Source of the DNA: an uncultured virus (IMG/VR IMGVR_UViG_3300008111_000024)
Lineage: Duplodnaviria; Heunggongvirae; Uroviricota; Caudoviricetes
Reading direction: 5' to 3' (one strand)
Virus record (IMG/VR): IMGVR_UViG_3300008111_000024
Length of the DNA: 20,000 bases
The translations under genes were made by a program, and so were the position numbers. The notes below the pieces were generated by a model. It saw only the letters and a program-made list of their open reading frames with translations, had not been told where the DNA came from and made no database searches. Position 1 is the first letter of the stretch. Every line of letters begins with the position of its first letter. Below are positions 9,864-19,633 of the stretch, piece after piece.

Positions 9864-10005
9864 AGTATATTCTTTCCTAATAAATACCGAAATTTTCCCA
9901 AAAATTTTTTTTTAGATTTCCCCCTTAGGAATATAGAAGGGGGTCCATTTTTCCAAAAAAATTGTATAGACTTTTTTTAAGGGATTACCCCCCCTTTTTG
10001 GACCT

Positions 10006-10170
10006 GACAGACTGTCACCCACGGGGGGGATACGGAGGGGGCCCCCATACGGGGGGAGTATAGGGGGGTATGCCACCCCACCCCCACCTGTCAAGATGAC
10101 AATACCAAATAAAGTTATTAACATAGTGGTGTGTATAATATATCCCTGACAGGTTGTCTGTTCATAACTT
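10006..10170. other. Cluster 1 of DnaA-like boxes and TGACA/TGTCA palindromes, with G-tracts
   Basis: TTATTAACA 10115-10123; TTATGAACA (minus) 10159-10167; TGACA-GAC-TGTCA 10006-10018. Confidence 0.5.
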
Positions 10171-10181
10171 ATTGTGGGGGA

Positions 10182-10213
10182 CTTGTGTATGTAATATATT
10201 ATTCGTATCTTCG
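10182..10213 (+). promoter_or_regulatory. Bacteroidota-type promoter (variant)
   Basis: CTTG-N20-TATCTTCG upstream of the 10240 gene. Confidence 0.55.
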
Positions 10214-10239
10214 TAGACATTTAATTTTAATCTCCCCCT

Positions 10240-10665
10240 ATGTACTTCGGACCTGTATTCAATCTTACTTACGAACAACGAACTGAGTGTAGACTTAAAC
10301 AGAAGGACTATGCGAAGAAGGTAAGTAAGATGATTAAGAACCGTGAGTATACAGTGGGGACTGACCATCATAGAATCACCTTCCGTATTGTCAGTGTACT
10401 TGCAGGTCACAGTAACTATGATGTTAATGAGTATCGTCTTAATGTGGAGATTTCAAAAATAGAACTTCGTTATAGAGATGATGAGTCTTGGTCTAATCGT
10501 ACCCCATACAAAGGGGAGAGAATCCGTAAGTATGACATTAACAGATATAAGGAATTCATTCAGACTGAACTTATGGGATTCCTAAACATCTTTGGGTTTG
10601 GTCATCGTTATGGTCAGGGAGCTTCCATTTATCTTGAGACCCCCAAAATAATTAACCGTAGATAA
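10240..10665 (+). CDS. Hypothetical protein (141 aa)
   Basis: ORF with an upstream host-type promoter; basic and aromatic. Confidence 0.75.
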   Translation: MYFGPVFNLTYEQRTECRLKQKDYAKKVSKMIKNREYTVGTDHHRITFRIVSVLAGHSNYDVNEYRLNVEISKIELRYRDDESWSNRTPYKGERIRKYDINRYKEFIQTELMGFLNIFGFGHRYGQGASIYLETPKIINRR

Positions 10666-10697
10666 TTTGGTAGTGTCAAATATTATCACTACCTTTG
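10666..10697 (+). promoter_or_regulatory. Bacteroidota primary-sigma promoter
   Basis: TTTG-N20-TACCTTTG, a consensus match; no plus-strand ORF follows before the gap. Confidence 0.75.
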
Positions 10698-10761
10698 TAG
10701 TGTTGTTATAGGGGAGACCCTAGCAAAGGGTTCGACTCTTCAGTCGCAGAGGGTAGACTCC

Positions 10762-10809
10762 NNNNNNNNNNNNNNNNNNNNNNNNNNNNNNNNNNNNNNN
10801 NNNNNNNNN
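10762..10809. other. Assembly gap (48 N)
   Basis: Run of N; true length unknown. Confidence 0.99.
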
Positions 10810-11006
10810 AGACCTTCTAAGTCCATAGAGTTAATCACTATTATACGTTGGGGAACTTTCCCCTCTGTCTTATCTGTGATGGTGAACCTAAGTACTCCTA
10901 ATCCTATTCCCCCATCCTTACCATAGTATCTTACACTACAGTTGTTCTCCATACATTCCACCTTGGGAGTAAGTCCATCTAAGATTTTGTCTGTCATATT
11001 GTCCAT
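10810..11006 (-). CDS. Hypothetical protein, 3' end lost in gap (MDNMTDKILDGLTPK...)
   Basis: ATG at 11006 is 4 nt after TATTTAT (11011-11017); the frame is open into the N run. Confidence 0.55.
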
Positions 11007-11077
11007 AATAATAAATATATACCTTGAGAGAGGGGTAAACTTGTTTCCCGAATTTATGAGGGTACAATAAAATATAG

Positions 11078-11204
11078 TTATGAACACCTTAATTGTGAAT
11101 AACTTTTTTTATCCACATTGGGGACTGACACCCTGTCAGGGGGAAATTGTTGATAACTTTTTTTAAAAATAGTGGTCAAAAAATTTGGATTTGTCAAAAT
11201 GTCA
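11078..11204. other. Cluster 2 of DnaA boxes (origin-like element)
   Basis: TTATGAACA 11078, TTATTCACA (minus) 11094, TTATCCACA 11109, TTATCAACA (minus) 11148; CTGACA-CCC-TGTCAG 11125-11139. Confidence 0.65.
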
Positions 11205-11268
11205 GTCAGGGTTTCGATAGGGGATAATCGCTTTACAGGGTTTTAGTCCCCACTCTCTATACACAGTC

Positions 11269-11544
11269 CCCCACTTTCTACCACCGATAATGGTCCTTAC
11301 GCTATAGTAGTGACCACTTTTTCCCCTCTGTAGGTACTGTGAGAAGGGATTTTTTAGGTATATATGAACTCCAGAGAAAAATAGAAGTTATGGTACAGAG
11401 GCGGTGGAAACACGTAGTGTGTTAGGATTATCCTTCAACGGACCCTCGTTAGAGGGGAATTAATCGACCATAGTATAATATATATTAGTCCCCTTCGTAG
11501 TGGTGACAACTAATACCATATACAATAAGTGGTAGAAAGTGGGG
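11269..11544. repeat. 16-bp perfect long-range inverted repeat
   Basis: CCCCACTTTCTACCAC (11269-11284) and GTGGTAGAAAGTGGGG (11529-11544). Confidence 0.85.
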
Positions 11545-11921
11545 AGATATAACTTGTCATATAAAGGACAAACCCGTAGGGTTTTAAATACTATATGACA
11601 CATTATCTCCTTCGTTACCACACTATATACTCTATAGTTTGTTCAGTTCGTTTCATTGTTCAGTGTCTTTAGACCGACACGTAGTGGAGTGTAACTGAAC
11701 ATTATCTTATACTGAACATTAATTAAGAGTACAATATATATCTCTCACTTGTCACTTAATATATGGGGGACACCACAATAGTGGGGGGAATGAAAGAATC
11801 TAATCCTGAATGAAATCCGTAGTGAGTTTACGAACGGTAGGATGGAGTGAATGGATTAGAGTGTTTCATTATCCTATAAGTTTAAAACCTTATAATGATT
11901 ACATATAAGTCTATAACCTTA

Positions 11922-11932: not shown

Positions 11933-12271
11933 ATGAATTACTTAGTCACCGAAAATCAGGTATCGAATCTTGCAATGACTTACTTAAATGGTAGATATCA
12001 TTTAGAGAAGTATAGAACCGATAAACACCCCGATATTATATTCTATGTTATTGAAGACAAGATATATATGGAATGGGACATTAAGAATAGTGATGTGTAT
12101 ATAAGTAAAAGATTGATGCACGAAATTAGAAGACATTTGGAGAATATATTTGGATTAGGTTTATATGACGGTAGAAAGGTATTTGATATGTGGGTTGCAC
12201 AGTATGTTGATACCTCGATAAATGATGTTCGTTTTAGTGAGACGTTACCTTACACAGTAAATGATATATGA
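11933..12271 (+). CDS. MKYIITE-family protein (MNYLVTE)
   Basis: Leader plus C-terminal LENIFGL...VFDMWV. Confidence 0.8.
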   Translation: MNYLVTENQVSNLAMTYLNGRYHLEKYRTDKHPDIIFYVIEDKIYMEWDIKNSDVYISKRLMHEIRRHLENIFGLGLYDGRKVFDMWVAQYVDTSINDVRFSETLPYTVNDI

Positions 12272-12579
12272 AAGTTAGAATAACAAATACTCAGTTACAC
12301 AAACTTATGGTGGACCACCTGAACTATCTTGCCAATAACGCATATGAAGGTCAGTTTGATTCATACATCATCTTATACTATAGTGATGAAGAAGAAGGCT
12401 TTGGTGATACAGATGTTATTATAGAACACGACTCTTATGACGGCAGATTATACATACAAAAAGATTACTTAAACACCTTCGTTAAAATGTTTCCCCTCGA
12501 TAGTGAGGACGCCTCTGAATTCATTAAAGAATGGTTCGAATGGAAGTACGGTGTCGAAGTAAAATATACTGAATCTTAA
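12268..12579 (+). CDS. MKYIITE-family protein (degenerate leader MKVRITNTQ)
   Basis: ATGA overlap; C-terminal MFPLDSEDASEFIKEWFEWKYGVEV. Confidence 0.8.
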   Translation: MKVRITNTQLHKLMVDHLNYLANNAYEGQFDSYIILYYSDEEEGFGDTDVIIEHDSYDGRLYIQKDYLNTFVKMFPLDSEDASEFIKEWFEWKYGVEVKYTES

Positions 12580-12580
12580 T

Positions 12581-12925
12581 ATGAAATACATTATAACAGA
12601 AAGTAAAATAAATAAATTTGTATCCGTTTATTTGAATTCACAAAAATGGGATTTAGAAGATATAGGTGACGGTGAATTTGATGTTACCGATGATAGTGAT
12701 GAGGGTGCAAAATTAAAATTTAGAATTCAAAATTCAACTACCGCACCTTACGAAGAATTTAATATGTTGTATATAGATGATGACCTAATTGTAAGAGTTG
12801 TTAATTTATTTAGTTTAAGCTTTAAAGATGCCACAAATTCAATCATTAATTGGTTTAATGAAAAATATAATACAAACATACCCGAGAATAGTTGGGAATG
12901 GTATATGAAAGATAAAGAAGAATAA
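12581..12925 (+). CDS. MKYIITE-family protein
   Basis: MKYIITESK; C-terminal LFSLSFKDATNSIINWFNEKY. Confidence 0.85.
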   Translation: MKYIITESKINKFVSVYLNSQKWDLEDIGDGEFDVTDDSDEGAKLKFRIQNSTTAPYEEFNMLYIDDDLIVRVVNLFSLSFKDATNSIINWFNEKYNTNIPENSWEWYMKDKEE

Positions 12926-12926
12926 T

Positions 12927-13250
12927 ATGAAATATATTATAACTGAAAGTAAAATTAATAGTATGATTAAGGATTATATCCTTAATAACTACGACGTTAT
13001 GGATGTCGACTTTGAAACCAAACGTGTTCATTTGGGCTCAGGTCCTAATGAAAAGGGTGAAACAAATGTGGTACAAAAAGTAATTGTTATCTATATTAAT
13101 AACATTAAGAATACTAAGAAATACGGCGAATTAAGAACTATTAAATCAGGTATCGCCAATTCTTTAGAAAACTTATTCGGTATTGATTTTAGAACTTACG
13201 GTTGTGAATGGGATTTAAACGTATATCAAGTTAAACGAACAGAGATATAA
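12927..13250 (+). CDS. MKYIITE-leader protein, divergent body
   Basis: MKYIITESK; LENLFG present but the WF motif is absent. Confidence 0.85.
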   Translation: MKYIITESKINSMIKDYILNNYDVMDVDFETKRVHLGSGPNEKGETNVVQKVIVIYINNIKNTKKYGELRTIKSGIANSLENLFGIDFRTYGCEWDLNVYQVKRTEI

Positions 13251-13251
13251 T

Positions 13252-13581
13252 ATGAAATATACTATAACAGAAGGTAAATTAGATAGTGTGATTGATTCTT
13301 TTATCACAAGCCAATTTGGTAACTTAGAACATCAGATGGATGGCGATAGACTTACCTTAACTAATGATAATGGTGACCCCCTTATTATTATCTTAGACTA
13401 TGACAATGTATATGAAGTGTTTGTATTGGACACCGTGTATGCTAGTATCTATAATCTATTCTCTTTAAATGGTTTTGATGATATACAACACCACCTAAGA
13501 AAATGGTTTAAGAAACACCTACACATAAACGCCGATGAGATTCAGACCTTTGATAACGAAGGTGTAGAATATATATACTAA
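13252..13581 (+). CDS. MKYIITE-family protein (MKYTITE)
   Basis: C-terminal LFSL...LRKWFKKHL. Confidence 0.85.
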   Translation: MKYTITEGKLDSVIDSFITSQFGNLEHQMDGDRLTLTNDNGDPLIIILDYDNVYEVFVLDTVYASIYNLFSLNGFDDIQHHLRKWFKKHLHINADEIQTFDNEGVEYIY

Positions 13582-13582
13582 T

Positions 13583-13891
13583 ATGAAATATACAATTAAT
13601 CATACCGACCTTAAACGTTTTATATTCATCTACTTATCTAAGACTGAGTATGTGACTCTTGGTGGTAAGTTTACTAATGAACTTACATTACGTAGAAAGG
13701 GAAATGAAGAGTATGTCTATGATGATTATATCTATACTTACGATGATAAAAGATTATTGGTGGAGACCAATCTTGTTTGGACCCTTGTAGGTTTATTTAA
13801 CATTAGTGAGGATGACGCTCTTGAGTATATTGGTGAGTGGTTTGAAATTACATATAAAGTACCCGTAGAGGAAATAATTGATTGGATTTAA
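13583..13891 (+). CDS. MKYIITE-family protein (degenerate leader MKYTINHTD)
   Basis: C-terminal LFNISEDDALEYIGEWFEITYKVPV. Confidence 0.85.
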   Translation: MKYTINHTDLKRFIFIYLSKTEYVTLGGKFTNELTLRRKGNEEYVYDDYIYTYDDKRLLVETNLVWTLVGLFNISEDDALEYIGEWFEITYKVPVEEIIDWI

Positions 13892-13892
13892 T

Positions 13893-14219
13893 ATGAAATA
13901 CATTATAACAGAATCACAGGTAGATGTAATGAAGAAGTATATGTATGATATACTTGACAAGGATTGCGTTAATTGGAATGTGGAGAAGTTTAACTTTAGA
14001 GAGATGATGGTTACTGATGAGTCGGGCGATGTCCTATTTAACTACTCGACTAACAATGAATACTTCGGTGAATTGATTGATACATTAATCATATCCCCCA
14101 AACTAATTAGAAAAGTTGAAGCCTTTCTTCCTCTTATGGATGAGTATTATATCTCTGATTGGTTCAGTGAGAAGTATAACCGTGTAGTGGATGAGATAAT
14201 TATAAGGGACGAAGAATAA
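13893..14219 (+). CDS. MKYIITE-family protein (108 aa, start revised)
   Basis: TAA-T-ATG junction; C-terminal ISDWFSEKYNRVV. Confidence 0.85.
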   Translation: MKYIITESQVDVMKKYMYDILDKDCVNWNVEKFNFREMMVTDESGDVLFNYSTNNEYFGELIDTLIISPKLIRKVEAFLPLMDEYYISDWFSEKYNRVVDEIIIRDEE

Positions 14220-14220
14220 T

Positions 14221-14616
14221 ATGAAATACATTATAACCGAAAATAAACTGAATCAAACCATTATGTCATATATCGATAAGGTATATGGTGATAAGAAAAT
14301 ATATATGGCCGAAGCTCTTATTGATGGTAAAGAAGTTGAGGGAGCTTATGATTTCTTTACTGAAGATTATTCAGAAGGAATTGATGAGGATTATTTATTC
14401 TTGTGGTCCGAAGCCAAGTATTACGAAAATACTATGATTAATGATAGTGTTCGTAAACGAAAACTATTAAGGGAATGCCCCATCTTAGAGATTACTAATA
14501 CAGGTAGTTCTAAAGGTAAACTTAATGAGTTATTCGGTGATAGATGGCACGAACCATTTAAAGAATGGTTTACTAATAAATTTGGTTTACCCGTTAAAAC
14601 AATATACTCCACTTAA
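14221..14616 (+). CDS. MKYIITE-family protein
   Basis: C-terminal LFGDRWHEPFKEWFTNKFGLPVKTI. Confidence 0.85.
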   Translation: MKYIITENKLNQTIMSYIDKVYGDKKIYMAEALIDGKEVEGAYDFFTEDYSEGIDEDYLFLWSEAKYYENTMINDSVRKRKLLRECPILEITNTGSSKGKLNELFGDRWHEPFKEWFTNKFGLPVKTIYST

Positions 14617-14617
14617 T

Positions 14618-15295
14618 ATGAAATACATTATAACAGAATCTCAGTATATAAAATTAACTGAACAGTCTGATGAAAGATTCGAAACTCCTTATAATAAAGA
14701 GTTTATGAAGAAGTATCATAAACCAACTAACTTAAACAATATATCTATTGATGATGCTATTGATGTTATATCAGGGATTATTGATGGTATACCAGGTATT
14801 GGGAATTTAATATCTGCGGGTATTGATGTTAGTCACGCTTTGGCGTATGGTATTAGATTCTTAAATTCAAATGACGAAAATGATAAAATTGAATATGCAA
14901 CTTTAGGTATCGTTACTTTAGGTGCTGCAACAATACCTGTTCAGGGTAATGCGTTACCTATTTTAGCTAGACAAGGTATTAAAAGTGTTTTGAAAAAAAC
15001 TCCTGAAGAAATACTACTTATAGGTAAAAAACTTGGGCTTTATAAACAAACAGTATTTATGTTATCTAAAACTAAATGGAAGTATAATATACTTTTAGTG
15101 TTAGCAAAAATATGTGGCGCAGAATTATTGGAGACATTAACAAATGTTGTTAAATATATTAAAGATTTAATACAAAAAATATCTAATGTTGATATAAAAA
15201 ATTCTCTTAAATCAATAATCTCTCTATTGAATGAATTTTTAAATGATGTCGATAGTATTAATACGGCAATTAAAATTAGTAAAAACTTAAAATAA
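14618..15295 (+). CDS. MKYIITE-leader protein with hydrophobic helical body (225 aa, start revised)
   Basis: DGIPGIGNLISAGIDVSHA and LGIVTLGAATIPVQG Gly/Ala-rich hydrophobic helices. Confidence 0.8.
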   Translation: MKYIITESQYIKLTEQSDERFETPYNKEFMKKYHKPTNLNNISIDDAIDVISGIIDGIPGIGNLISAGIDVSHALAYGIRFLNSNDENDKIEYATLGIVTLGAATIPVQGNALPILARQGIKSVLKKTPEEILLIGKKLGLYKQTVFMLSKTKWKYNILLVLAKICGAELLETLTNVVKYIKDLIQKISNVDIKNSLKSIISLLNEFLNDVDSINTAIKISKNLK

Positions 15296-15301
15296 ATTAA
15301 T

Positions 15302-15961
15302 ATGAACTTACAAGAACAAATATCAAGAATACAATCAATGATGAGATTATTGATTGAGGATGAACAAAAAACATATGAGAGTAAACCAATCATTTTAATT
15401 GGTCCACAGGGAACAGGAAAATCAACCACGGCAAGGGCATTGGCCGAAAAATTAAGTATACCATTAGTTGAGACAGATATTTTGATGACTGATGAAACAT
15501 ATGAAAATATGTGTAAAGGTCAGCCAGGTGTTGAGGTTAAAATTACAAGAGTTGCAGGTGGAGGTATAAATTATTCATCTAATAAAGAGTACGAATTTTG
15601 TGTTATGAATAAAATATTTGATAGGTACAGAGATAAAAAAATTGTTCTTGATATTGGTGGTTCACACGCCAAGTGGGAAGATGAACATTCATCAAAAATG
15701 AAAGAACTTTTTAACTCAACTCCAAATATATTTATTTTCAATGTTACAGGGGATGAGGATGAAACATATGAGTTTTTAAAGAAACGAAGAGAAGGTAGAG
15801 GTGAAAAAATATCACCCGAAAATGAAGAAAAATTCAGAAGAATTATAACTGATTTAAATAACTTCTACAGAGGAACTCAAAAGATATCTATCGTAAATAA
15901 AGAAGGTTCAGATAAAACAACAGAAGAACTTGTTGATGAAATTATTACAAAATTAACATAA
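15302..15961 (+). CDS. P-loop kinase (shikimate/NMP-kinase fold) with MNLQEQISRIQSMM leader
   Basis: IILIGPQGTGKSTTARALAEKLSIPLVETD Walker A; IVLDIGG; lid-like KKRREGR. Confidence 0.8.
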   Translation: MNLQEQISRIQSMMRLLIEDEQKTYESKPIILIGPQGTGKSTTARALAEKLSIPLVETDILMTDETYENMCKGQPGVEVKITRVAGGGINYSSNKEYEFCVMNKIFDRYRDKKIVLDIGGSHAKWEDEHSSKMKELFNSTPNIFIFNVTGDEDETYEFLKKRREGRGEKISPENEEKFRRIITDLNNFYRGTQKISIVNKEGSDKTTEELVDEIITKLT

Positions 15962-16281
15962 TGAACCTTCAAGAACAAATATCAAGAATACAATCAATGA
16001 TAGGAGTAATTAATGAATCACCATTCTTTAATAGAAGAGTCGACTTAGATAAAGTTAAAGAAATACTCGTACTTCATTCAGACCAAGTATACCACGAAAC
16101 GGATAGTTATGAACAATTTAAATATGAATTGACTTTAAGAGCCGTGGAAGCCGCAATATGGCAAGATTTCGGTTTGGGATGGGAAGACTTACCTAGTGAG
16201 GAAGAAATAAAATACGTTACTGAAGTTTCTGAAATGTTTGAGGACCTCATTAAACATCTATATAAATCACATCTTAAATAA
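15961..16281 (+). CDS. MNLQEQISRIQSM-leader hypothetical protein
   Basis: TAATG overlap; same leader as the preceding gene, ending VINE|S. Confidence 0.8.
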   Translation: MNLQEQISRIQSMIGVINESPFFNRRVDLDKVKEILVLHSDQVYHETDSYEQFKYELTLRAVEAAIWQDFGLGWEDLPSEEEIKYVTEVSEMFEDLIKHLYKSHLK

Positions 16282-16282
16282 T

Positions 16283-16717
16283 ATGAATTACACAATAGGA
16301 GAAAATAGAATGACTGATATCCTTCATAAAGTTCTTACTTTAGAGTTTGAAGGATTTGATGACATATACTACAATTGGGCCGACTTTAATTGTGGTTGGG
16401 GAGTTTGTTGTGACATATACGCCATTGGGTTTACTTTACCTAAGAAAGATTATGATGATTACCTATTTAAATTGGTTGATGGTGAGGAGTATGACCCTAA
16501 CGGTAATTATGGTGAAGAACTTACAGGTGAACTACCTGAGATTTGTATGGAATCCCCTGACATAAGAGACCCTCGCTTTGATACTTATATATTCTATGAT
16601 GTATTCGTAGAACAACTTGAGAATTACTTAGGTCCTCATACTAATTGGGACCAATCATTATTGGAATTATTAAACAGGACTTACCGTACCGAAGCAACTA
16701 AGATACTATTTATTTAA
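16283..16717 (+). CDS. MKYIITE-like protein (MNYTIGE), acidic, Cys cluster (144 aa, start revised)
   Basis: TAA-T-ATG junction; NCGWGVCCD motif. Confidence 0.8.
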   Translation: MNYTIGENRMTDILHKVLTLEFEGFDDIYYNWADFNCGWGVCCDIYAIGFTLPKKDYDDYLFKLVDGEEYDPNGNYGEELTGELPEICMESPDIRDPRFDTYIFYDVFVEQLENYLGPHTNWDQSLLELLNRTYRTEATKILFI

Positions 16718-16718
16718 T

Positions 16719-17621
16719 ATGAATTACATCATTAACGAATCTCATCTTTTTATGTTGTTGGATAGTATCTTCCCTGATTTATCTGTAAAGAAAATACGCT
16801 CACAGAATCCCGCTTACGCAATTGAATCTAACGATGATGAGATGTTCCACTATGAGAACGGTTCCGTTAATGTTAATCCCGACCTTATTAAAATGATTAA
16901 TAAGTTCGCCCCTATCAGAATGACTGAAGATGTTGTTAATGTTATGGGTAAATGGATTCATAATAGAACAGGACTTAAACCAAGAGTTATTTGGATTGGT
17001 CTTAAAGAATATAATGTCGAACCTCATCTTAATGAATCGTTTGATAAGTTACGTGCCAGAAGATTAATGCACATTGCTAATGATTATTTTAATAACTTAA
17101 GTTCTAAAGATGTTTGTGACTATTGGGACTCTGACGGTGTGGATGATTACGTAACAGAAACTATGGCTGAAATGGTTCGATTTATTACTGATGATTATCC
17201 TAATGTATCTGCGGATGATTGGCACGATACCTATGAAGGAATATACGAAATGTTAGATAGTATTGGTTATTCTAATGATATTAGAGATTTCTTCTATGAA
17301 TCTCTTGATAACTGTAATAATCTTAATGAATCTATGTACCCTGATAAACCTATGAAGAAGTTTAATAGAGACAGTAACCCTGGGCCAGGTAAATACGGTA
17401 AAATGATTGAGAAATTAACTTATCAGTATTTTTCAGATATTAAAGAATCTGTCTGTGATGTTATTTGTATGAAAGCGGATAACCTTGATTCGTATATACT
17501 ATTAGTTTTATTGAATCACTCTAGAAGTGAAGTAGGTTTAGTGAGATATCTTGAGAACTTCATACCTATCGATATTATAGTATTATTTAATACGTCTTTT
17601 GGTTGTGATAAAGAAGATTAA
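16719..17621 (+). CDS. MKYIITE-family three-module protein (MNYIINE; internal LNES x2)
   Basis: 300-aa ORF; LNES at aa 104-107 and 202-205. Confidence 0.8.
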   Translation: MNYIINESHLFMLLDSIFPDLSVKKIRSQNPAYAIESNDDEMFHYENGSVNVNPDLIKMINKFAPIRMTEDVVNVMGKWIHNRTGLKPRVIWIGLKEYNVEPHLNESFDKLRARRLMHIANDYFNNLSSKDVCDYWDSDGVDDYVTETMAEMVRFITDDYPNVSADDWHDTYEGIYEMLDSIGYSNDIRDFFYESLDNCNNLNESMYPDKPMKKFNRDSNPGPGKYGKMIEKLTYQYFSDIKESVCDVICMKADNLDSYILLVLLNHSRSEVGLVRYLENFIPIDIIVLFNTSFGCDKED

Positions 17622-19226: not shown

Positions 19227-19633
19227 ATGAAGTATATTATAACTGAGTCTAAATTAGAAAATACAATCCATAGTTATCTAACTGCATATGTTCATCCTGA
19301 TTATAATTGGGGTCCTGAATTACACGACTTCTATCTCCTGATTATAATTGGGGTCCTGAATTACACGACTTCTATCGTGAAGATGTTAAGAAATATGGTA
19401 GGTATGATTTCCTTATTAATGATGATGTAGCATATACTTATGACGGTTATCAAGGTTATGCAGATAGTGATGAAGTTGAGGAGATAGGTATACTATACAT
19501 CCTACCTTGGTTGGTTGATAAACTAACAACTTTATTTGGTAACTTTTGGCAACCCGTATTTAAAGATTGGTTTGAAGAAAATTCAGGTCTTGAAGTTAAA
19601 AAAATGATTATAGGAAATGAAGAAATTAATTAA
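19227..19633 (+). pseudogene. MKYIITE-family gene frameshifted by a 41-bp tandem duplication (possibly an assembly artefact)
   Basis: Removing one copy restores a 121-aa ORF ending LFGNFWQPVFKDWFEENSGLEVKKMIIGNEEIN. Confidence 0.8.
19295..19376 (+). repeat. Exact 41-bp tandem duplication
   Basis: TCCTGATTATAATTGGGGTCCTGAATTACACGACTTCTATC x2 (19295-19335, 19336-19376). Confidence 0.95.

Follow-up and report, generated by a model that had tools for sequence, protein, structure and literature searches.

The window analysed here, 20,000 nucleotides in length, is the right end of a 75.6-kb viral record (G000; 32% GC, judged 33% complete). Between about 9,980 and 11,800 it carries a mostly gene-free island of 1.9 kb, which a clade of giant lake phages keeps as a single copy. 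From left to right, the island is composed as follows.

10005..10017, no strand assigned: TGACA-N3-TGTCA dyad of the heat-shock-promoter type, ahead of the G-tract, from the genome-wide dyad list
10023..10068, plus strand: G-rich tract with a GGGGGGATAC core, a candidate packaging or end signal or sequencing-break site
10113..10169, no strand assigned: cluster A, with DnaA-type boxes at 10115 (plus), 10130 (minus) and 10159 (minus) and a CTGACA-N3-TGTC dyad at 10146-10158
10183..10213, plus strand: look-alike of a Bacteroidota-type sigma-70 promoter (TTG, 20 nt, TATCTTCG) ahead of the cassette
10240..10665, plus strand: cassette ORF of 141 aa, without a Pfam or PHROG family
10666..10850, plus strand: second host-type promoter (TTTG at 10666, TACCTTTG at 10690), followed by a short non-coding element
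11061..11065, plus strand: GGTAC word preceding cluster B; 17 of 26 islands have GGYAC here
11076..11158, no strand assigned: cluster B, with DnaA-type boxes at 11078 (plus), 11094 (minus), 11109 (plus) and 11148 (minus) and a perfect CTGACA-CCC-TGTCAG dyad at 11125-11139
11159..11230, plus strand: A/T-tract spacer, TTTG, a direct TGTCA-AAA-TGTCAG dyad (11192-11205), then GGGGATAATC
11248..11284, minus strand: MraZ-type GTGG repeats with a period of about 10 bp
11529..11544, plus strand: a further MraZ-type dyad, GTGGTAGAAAGTGGGG, which inverts 11269-11284 exactly
11543..11610, no strand assigned: long imperfect palindrome of 68 bp
11783..11788, plus strand: closing downstream G-run; in 22 of 25 islands, at least 5 consecutive G stand between +450 and +700

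Six of the seven boxes had been listed in a preliminary description of this DNA, and all six were recovered at the positions and on the strands given there. Five of them carry the AG prefix that it had reported, the exception being 11109 with TT. Its convergent pair at 10115 and 10159 consists of real boxes, but a seventh one between them was overlooked: TTATACACA, on the minus strand at 10130, matches TTWTNCACA perfectly, so that the left pair is a trio. A strict fit to TTWTNCACA is found in only three of the seven boxes, and one-mismatch boxes occur across the whole window at chance level (75 versus 69 +/- 8). The clustering itself exceeds chance: seven of the contig's 21 TTATNMACA words fall inside 1.1 kb, four of them inside 90 bp, a density reached in none of 20,000 random placements. 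The longer word AGTTATNMACA occurs seven times in 75.6 kb, five times within the island. A switch of gene strand, also described for this position, holds locally, with plus-strand genes from 11.9 to 17.6 kb, but is not a property of four near-complete relatives, in which the 10 kb to the right of the island are mainly minus-strand (coding index -0.20 to -0.87). The window interval 11933-17621 is occupied by an array of small paralogous genes starting MKYIITES or MNLQEQISRIQSM, without Pfam or PHROG matches for those tested and many of them preceded by a TATTTAT word; an ORF of the MKYIITE type is broken at 19290-19375 by about 40 bp duplicated in tandem, possibly an assembly artefact.

Relatives were gathered by cassette-ORF and motif scans of IMG/VR. 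The motif scan yielded 57 loci, of which 31 were kept by eye as the phage clade; the other 26, lacking the downstream TGTCA dyad, were removed ahead of counting. Together with L004, two mis-binned contigs and the window itself, the 31 loci give 35 sequences and 26 distinct islands, in all of which the last box and second dyad are present because the anchor was built on them. Two pieces of the phage clade (L155, L156) had been mis-binned into two Bacteroidota MAGs. The anchor motif has exactly one match in G000 and in each of eight large relatives, which have just 3 to 34 of the 100 ORFs of G000 in common with it.

Across these islands the layout recurs. The upstream GGGGATAC word is present in 22 of 26, the remaining four offering at most 1.5 kb of upstream sequence, and the order G-tract then boxes is kept in 21 of 22. 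The tract at 10023..10068 is the only one in the contig to combine four runs of at least 4 G each; both ends of the related record G006 fall inside its G-tract. The MraZ-type dyad is found in all 26 islands with a loose pattern and in 17 with a stricter one, mostly as two repeats, three clear ones being seen in G006. The GGGGATAATC element belongs to a GGGAYAATC type found in 23 of 26 islands, and other conserved short words lie between the GTGG-type dyads and the closing G-run. The direct dyad at 11192-11205 sits in the spacer of a degenerate promoter, and the GGTAC word at 11061..11065 looks like a sigma-54 -24 element whose spacing varies between islands. Promoter look-alikes were called with TTG...TAnnTTTG, which we take to be the Bacteroidota sigma-70 consensus. 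Spacing within the right half changes in steps: the last box lies -46/-48 or -56 to -59 from the second dyad in 25 of 26 islands, and MraZ-type dyads fall at +30, 41, 53, 64, 85 and 98 (R = 0.91 at 11 bp). Such steps of roughly one helical turn are what a phased nucleoprotein array would give, and a repeated MraZ array would yield part of the pattern too.

The cassette varies between islands, and its ORF has close homologues in just two viral contigs. The non-coding element behind it (10700-10850) contains a GTAGACTCC word conserved in 12 of 25 relatives and has a conserved end of the form GTAGACTCC..CCT(G/A)CCTTATA; the element was seen in the window and in L004, L053, L061, L067, L078, L081, L084, L088, L092, L094, L155 and L060. 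It is possibly a small RNA. No consensus fold was obtained across the 12 relatives, and Rfam returned nothing at E<=1 for 10666..10850, an interval that is partly N in the window. Scans of 8.5-12.5 kb gave no Rfam family at gathering score and no tRNA. Within the palindrome at 11543..11610, the inner part has one orientation in the window and L155 and the opposite one in L056 and L156, which may reflect flip/flop or template switching. An RNA helix formed by the 16-nt inverted repeat 11269/11529 was considered and dropped because both arms are MraZ-type dyads. CCTGWCAGG as a palindrome for a phage initiator was likewise given up, the conserved unit being CTGACA-N3-TGTCAG, a host heat-shock-promoter word, and GGGGAYAATCCC was not enriched as a host operator (12 matches versus 11 in the control, in 61 genomes).

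The gene content of G001 includes a tail sheath, head and portal proteins of the T4 type, DnaK and a sigma factor, together with a DNA polymerase, a DnaB-like helicase, a primase, an SSB and a UvsX-like recombinase. A bS21 gene is present in six of nine island-bearing relatives tested, including all four of those at least 90% complete; the 33%-complete G000 does not cover it. Phages of freshwater Bacteroidetes that encode bS21 are given, in the consulted part of PMC9723584, genomes of about 290-330 kb with 31-34% GC and bS21 in the structural region, and G001 (308,574 bp, 31.5% GC) and G000 (32% GC) match these in size or GC. The sequencing runs richest in the window stretch are labelled lake-water, freshwater or 'fungus' metagenomes. 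INPHARED, searched for cultured relatives, returned zero DNA matches, and the island is absent from the 156 of 160 kb scanned of Flavobacterium phage immuto 2-6A, on whose termini the consulted part of PMC7077304 carries nothing. Capture of a host chromosomal segment was rejected, since 301 host genomes gave short matches only, the best of them a mis-binned phage contig, and no long homology to the island. ParB was found in none of five phage records searched, an apparent 'partition protein' match being DnaK, and a dif-like site in none of the 26 islands.

To place the island words in a host context, the 30 best loci per gene for mraZ, groES and dnaA were drawn from 41 Bacteroidia genomes. Ahead of mraZ, GTGG dyads were present in 27 of 30 loci, compared with one for groES and none for dnaA, and the MraZ repeat described in 10.1101/2022.02.09.479790, in the part consulted, is of the same GTGG type. 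The box variant of the phage is a word of host mraZ promoters too, TTWTNMACA being found in 28/30 upstream regions of mraZ, 7/30 of dnaA and 0/30 of groES. In 19 of the 30 mraZ loci (L219-L248), an AGTTWTYAACA box immediately precedes the GTGG repeats, which suggests that DnaA may control the Bacteroidota division cluster, as in B. subtilis, where it is reported to bind the mra/ftsL promoter (PMC8203912; 10.1101/2022.02.09.479790, both in the parts consulted). Common to the phage island and the mraZ/dcw promoter of Bacteroidia are the AGTTWTYAACA word and GTGG repeats with a period of about 10 bp. The arrangement differs: the host box adjoins three repeats and mraZ, whereas the phage words lie about 110-120 bp apart, the repeats are mostly two and stand in both orientations, and mraZ is missing from the five records searched.

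The remaining dyads point to heat shock. CTGACA/TGTCAG occurs upstream of groES in 23 of 30 loci (3 and 5 in the other two gene sets), TGGCAY in 27 of 30 (L159-L188), and the complete TGWCA-N3-TGWCA dyad in 8 of 30, compared with 0 of 60 controls. The 8-bp dyad spacing that dominates in the islands (48 pairs) is also the commonest upstream of groES. Chaperone genes are described as sigma-54-dependent in Bacteroidota in the part of PMC12316311 consulted. The phages appear to use a promoter of this kind themselves, as the dnaK promoter of G001 (about 28,830), G005 and G007 has a TGWCA dyad followed 11 nt on by TGGYAY. Likeness of the island to the Bacteroidota sigma-54 heat-shock promoter (PMC12316311, same limit) lies in its TGWCA-N3-TGWCA dyads; its dyads differ in that no TGGCAY element follows them after 11 nt, as it does at host groES and phage dnaK. 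The dyad also recurs within ORFs upstream of phage sigma-factor and helicase genes in three genomes. Judged by these motifs, the island holds three putative host-operator types, of which the boxes are one.

That the boxes are of the DnaA type, as first described, is probable. Host DnaA is the likely binder, because its D-H-x-T-V recognition motif is intact in 30 of 30 loci and because oriC-like arrays in a few hosts use TGTGGATAA, of the same 9-mer family as the phage boxes. Dense arrays of TGTGGATAA, candidates for a Bacteroidia oriC, were seen at L258:1280-1580 (G052), G094 C52 and G130 C389, with up to 16 boxes in 300 bp; the one in L258 lies upstream of nadA. The phage boxes are mostly TTATYAACA, whereas those of the L258 array are mostly TTATCCACA, and in their wording the former resemble promoter-type more than origin-type boxes. 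A dnaA-like gene of the phage, proposed as something to look for, was not encountered: a search for DnaA domain IV in G000-G007, G010 and G011 gave none, and neither a phage DnaA nor a mini-DnaA was identified, two weak PF00308 matches below cut-off, in long ORFs, being disregarded. A phage mraZ gene is absent from all five records searched.

We then consider the position of the island in the genome. Contig ends lie at most 10 kb from it in 22 of 32 records, compared with 9.1 expected, some records being repeat assemblies of one phage; the excess is weak because G-runs and variable flanks also break assemblies. Read depth climbs rightwards from about 9,850 in three of four runs and does so cleanly in one only (12.2 to 19.4), two runs being strain mixtures and the fourth having one contig that is flat across the G-tract. 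The island is GC-richer than its flanks. Three raw-read runs contained almost nothing of this phage and revealed no terminus, and neither they nor an RNA run gave coverage of the island. Homologues of the last 1.2 kb of the window are not at right-hand ends in the 12 relatives searched. With T4 gp17-type proteins the terminase shares 25-28% identity; terminases of that type package by the headful mechanism and produce permuted genomes.

An inflection of GC skew had been predicted at the island, and the cumulative skew of the contig does reach its minimum at window position 10,022. However, skew tracks gene strand (1-kb windows, r = 0.83 in the contig and r = 0.51-0.83 overall), and a V-shaped profile at the island is absent from the four near-complete relatives (G001, G005, G006, G007). 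Skew was computed at fourfold-degenerate sites (GC4), corrected for gene strand, over 45 kb on each side of the island. The GC4 term is -0.03 to the left and -0.23 to the right, a step of -0.20 (gene bootstrap -0.26 to -0.13, with related genomes not independent) that becomes -0.19 without the repeated gene family; intergenic skew changes from -0.018 to -0.144. The term is lower to the right in all six measurable genomes, three of nine having an unmeasurable side, and in three of three circular maps the most negative step of the map lies at most about 12 kb from the island. With a G-rich leading strand (PMC7111523, in the part consulted), the step expected of a bidirectional origin is positive, and a leftward origin should leave the left flank C-rich. 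The observed pattern fits leftward forks terminating at the island. A boundary of leftward transcription could cause the step as well. The same method applied to T5 gave no step at the known left end or at the injection-stop region (iss; term about +0.03 at 0-15 kb), and the skew argument is therefore uncalibrated and the step without precedent.

Among the three readings first offered for the boxes (an origin mimic, a DnaA-titration site and a genome-end control region as in T5), the last fits best, on indirect evidence. As in the T5 iss (10.1101/866236, in the part consulted, here and below), two untranslated DnaA-box clusters at variable distance flank a short plus-strand cassette, the TTATCAACA and TTATTAACA variants occur in both, and both regions are better conserved than the ORFs that flank them, rich in palindromes and accompanied by a phage-encoded replisome. 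In T5, a siphovirus, the boxes form tandem pairs with a 3-bp spacing; these sit in 131-bp inverted repeats, which in turn belong to a 10-kb terminal repeat (10.1101/866236). Those of the island alternate in orientation at 6-7 bp, and the arms around clusters A and B share just 25 nt at 80%. The island adds MraZ-type dyads, heat-shock dyads and a G-tract, whereas T5 1-12 kb has no GTGG/TGGG dyads, and the island phage differs in its tail sheath and T4-type head genes. By this analogy the island may work like an iss, yet we do not class it as one, because box spacing and long inverted repeats differ and a terminal repeat is not evident here. For T5 itself the role of the injection-stop DnaA boxes has been open since 1987 and is argued in silico in the part of 10.1101/866236 consulted.

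We tentatively favour, at somewhat less than even confidence, a docking site for host DnaA and other regulators at a genome end or fork stop, similar to the T5 iss. The island likely marks such an end or stop because strand bias changes abruptly there, and a fork-stop point would most probably be the packaging start or a preferred genome end beside the G-tract. Host DnaA, MraZ and a heat-shock regulator would bind the island. Most forks would move leftward, in the direction of the bulk of transcription, and would halt there, which would make the island an end or a barrier, not an origin. At entry, the bound host proteins could hold or organise the DNA end, as proposed for the T5 injection-stop region, and might also control the small cassette that the two clusters enclose. 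Once copy number is high, these sites might in addition drain DnaA and MraZ from the host, and a DnaA-titration site, the second of the initial readings, is in this respect possible. A bacterial comparison is offered by E. coli datA and DARS, DnaA-regulating host loci with non-origin DnaA-box clusters at fixed spacing that need IHF or Fis; the island resembles them in having non-origin box clusters at fixed spacing.

On balance unlikely, though a serious competitor, is an operator hub linked neither to ends nor to forks, in which phage promoters read the replication, division and stress state of the host and the amplified genome soaks up DnaA, MraZ and the heat-shock regulator like a sponge. 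Each of the three site types matches words of host promoters and not of oriC, a host-type promoter lies within about 20-50 bp of cluster A, the heat-shock dyad is used at the phage's own dnaK promoter, the records searched yielded neither a dnaA nor an mraZ gene of the phage, and DnaA is reported to bind the B. subtilis mra/ftsL promoter (PMC8203912; 10.1101/2022.02.09.479790, as above). The skew step would then be a boundary between transcription domains. However, a plain sponge requires neither helical phasing nor a G-tract, cluster B has no conserved downstream gene, and the hub by itself leaves unexplained why the sharpest strand-bias step of the genome coincides with the island.

An origin is improbable. 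It would be assisted by host DnaA in the first rounds, primed through an R-loop from the promoter transcript and the G-tract, and mainly unidirectional, with recombination-dependent replication later. The single-copy, conserved DnaA-type boxes do adjoin an A/T-rich 35-bp stretch and a G-tract, the strand-bias step coincides with the island, and 9-mer clusters in both orientations beside an A/T-rich stretch are features of a bacterial oriC. Unlike an oriC, the island lacks DnaA-trios, a C-to-G skew switch and an adjacent dnaA, and has few perfect boxes. In a crude scan, the longest trio run beside a box was 0-3 in all 26 islands. Moreover, the sign of the step is opposite to that expected from a G-rich leading strand, and inverting the polarity would set forks head-on to most genes genome-wide. 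A polymerase, a helicase, a primase, an SSB and a UvsX-like protein are encoded by the phage itself, at loci distant from the island, and the T5 origins are central, its DnaA boxes not being thought to serve replication (10.1101/866236, in the part consulted). The initial suggestion of an oriC mimic is therefore not supported, because trios are missing, relatives show no V-shaped skew and the corrected step has the wrong sign; by two tested criteria, trios and skew switch, the island is not an oriC.

Least likely, in our view, DnaA is uninvolved and the 9-mers are bound by a phage protein or by another Bacteroidota factor that is active at the mraZ promoter as well: the contrast between phage TTATYAACA and L258 boxes allows another host protein, A at position 6 and an AG prefix are preferred in the boxes of the phage and of host mraZ (57/83 and 15/32), unlike L258, and strict TTATNMACA occurs in only 2 of 30 host dnaA upstream regions, but TTATCAACA and TTATTAACA are one mismatch off the DnaA consensus, the related TTATAAACA occurs in host oriC-like arrays, and 14 of the 41 host genomes have convergent pairs, compared with one in the reversed control, dnaB and dinB being among the genes that such pairs precede.

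The literature search found no paper describing the island, most subscription journals lying outside its scope, and in the main text of PMC9723584 the words 'GC skew', 'origin', 'DnaA', 'intergenic' and 'non-coding' are absent. As far as we are aware, the strand-corrected step is new, as are the host-side counts that tie the box to mraZ promoters. Beyond the docking site that we favour, a bolder version, to which we give a low probability, is that a jumbo myovirus clade tags its genome end with a helically phased array capturing DnaA, MraZ and a heat-shock regulator together. Such an array would be a DNA-only cell-cycle sensor that controls entry or a carrier-state switch and stalls host replication without any phage protein, the boxes of T5 being a second, independent case.

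The strand-bias step predicts genome ends or fork arrest at the island. A widespread lake-phage clade unrelated to T5 has a similar two-cluster layout, with division and heat-shock operators in addition; this similarity suggests that phages have repeatedly used bare DNA to engage the cell-cycle proteins of their hosts.
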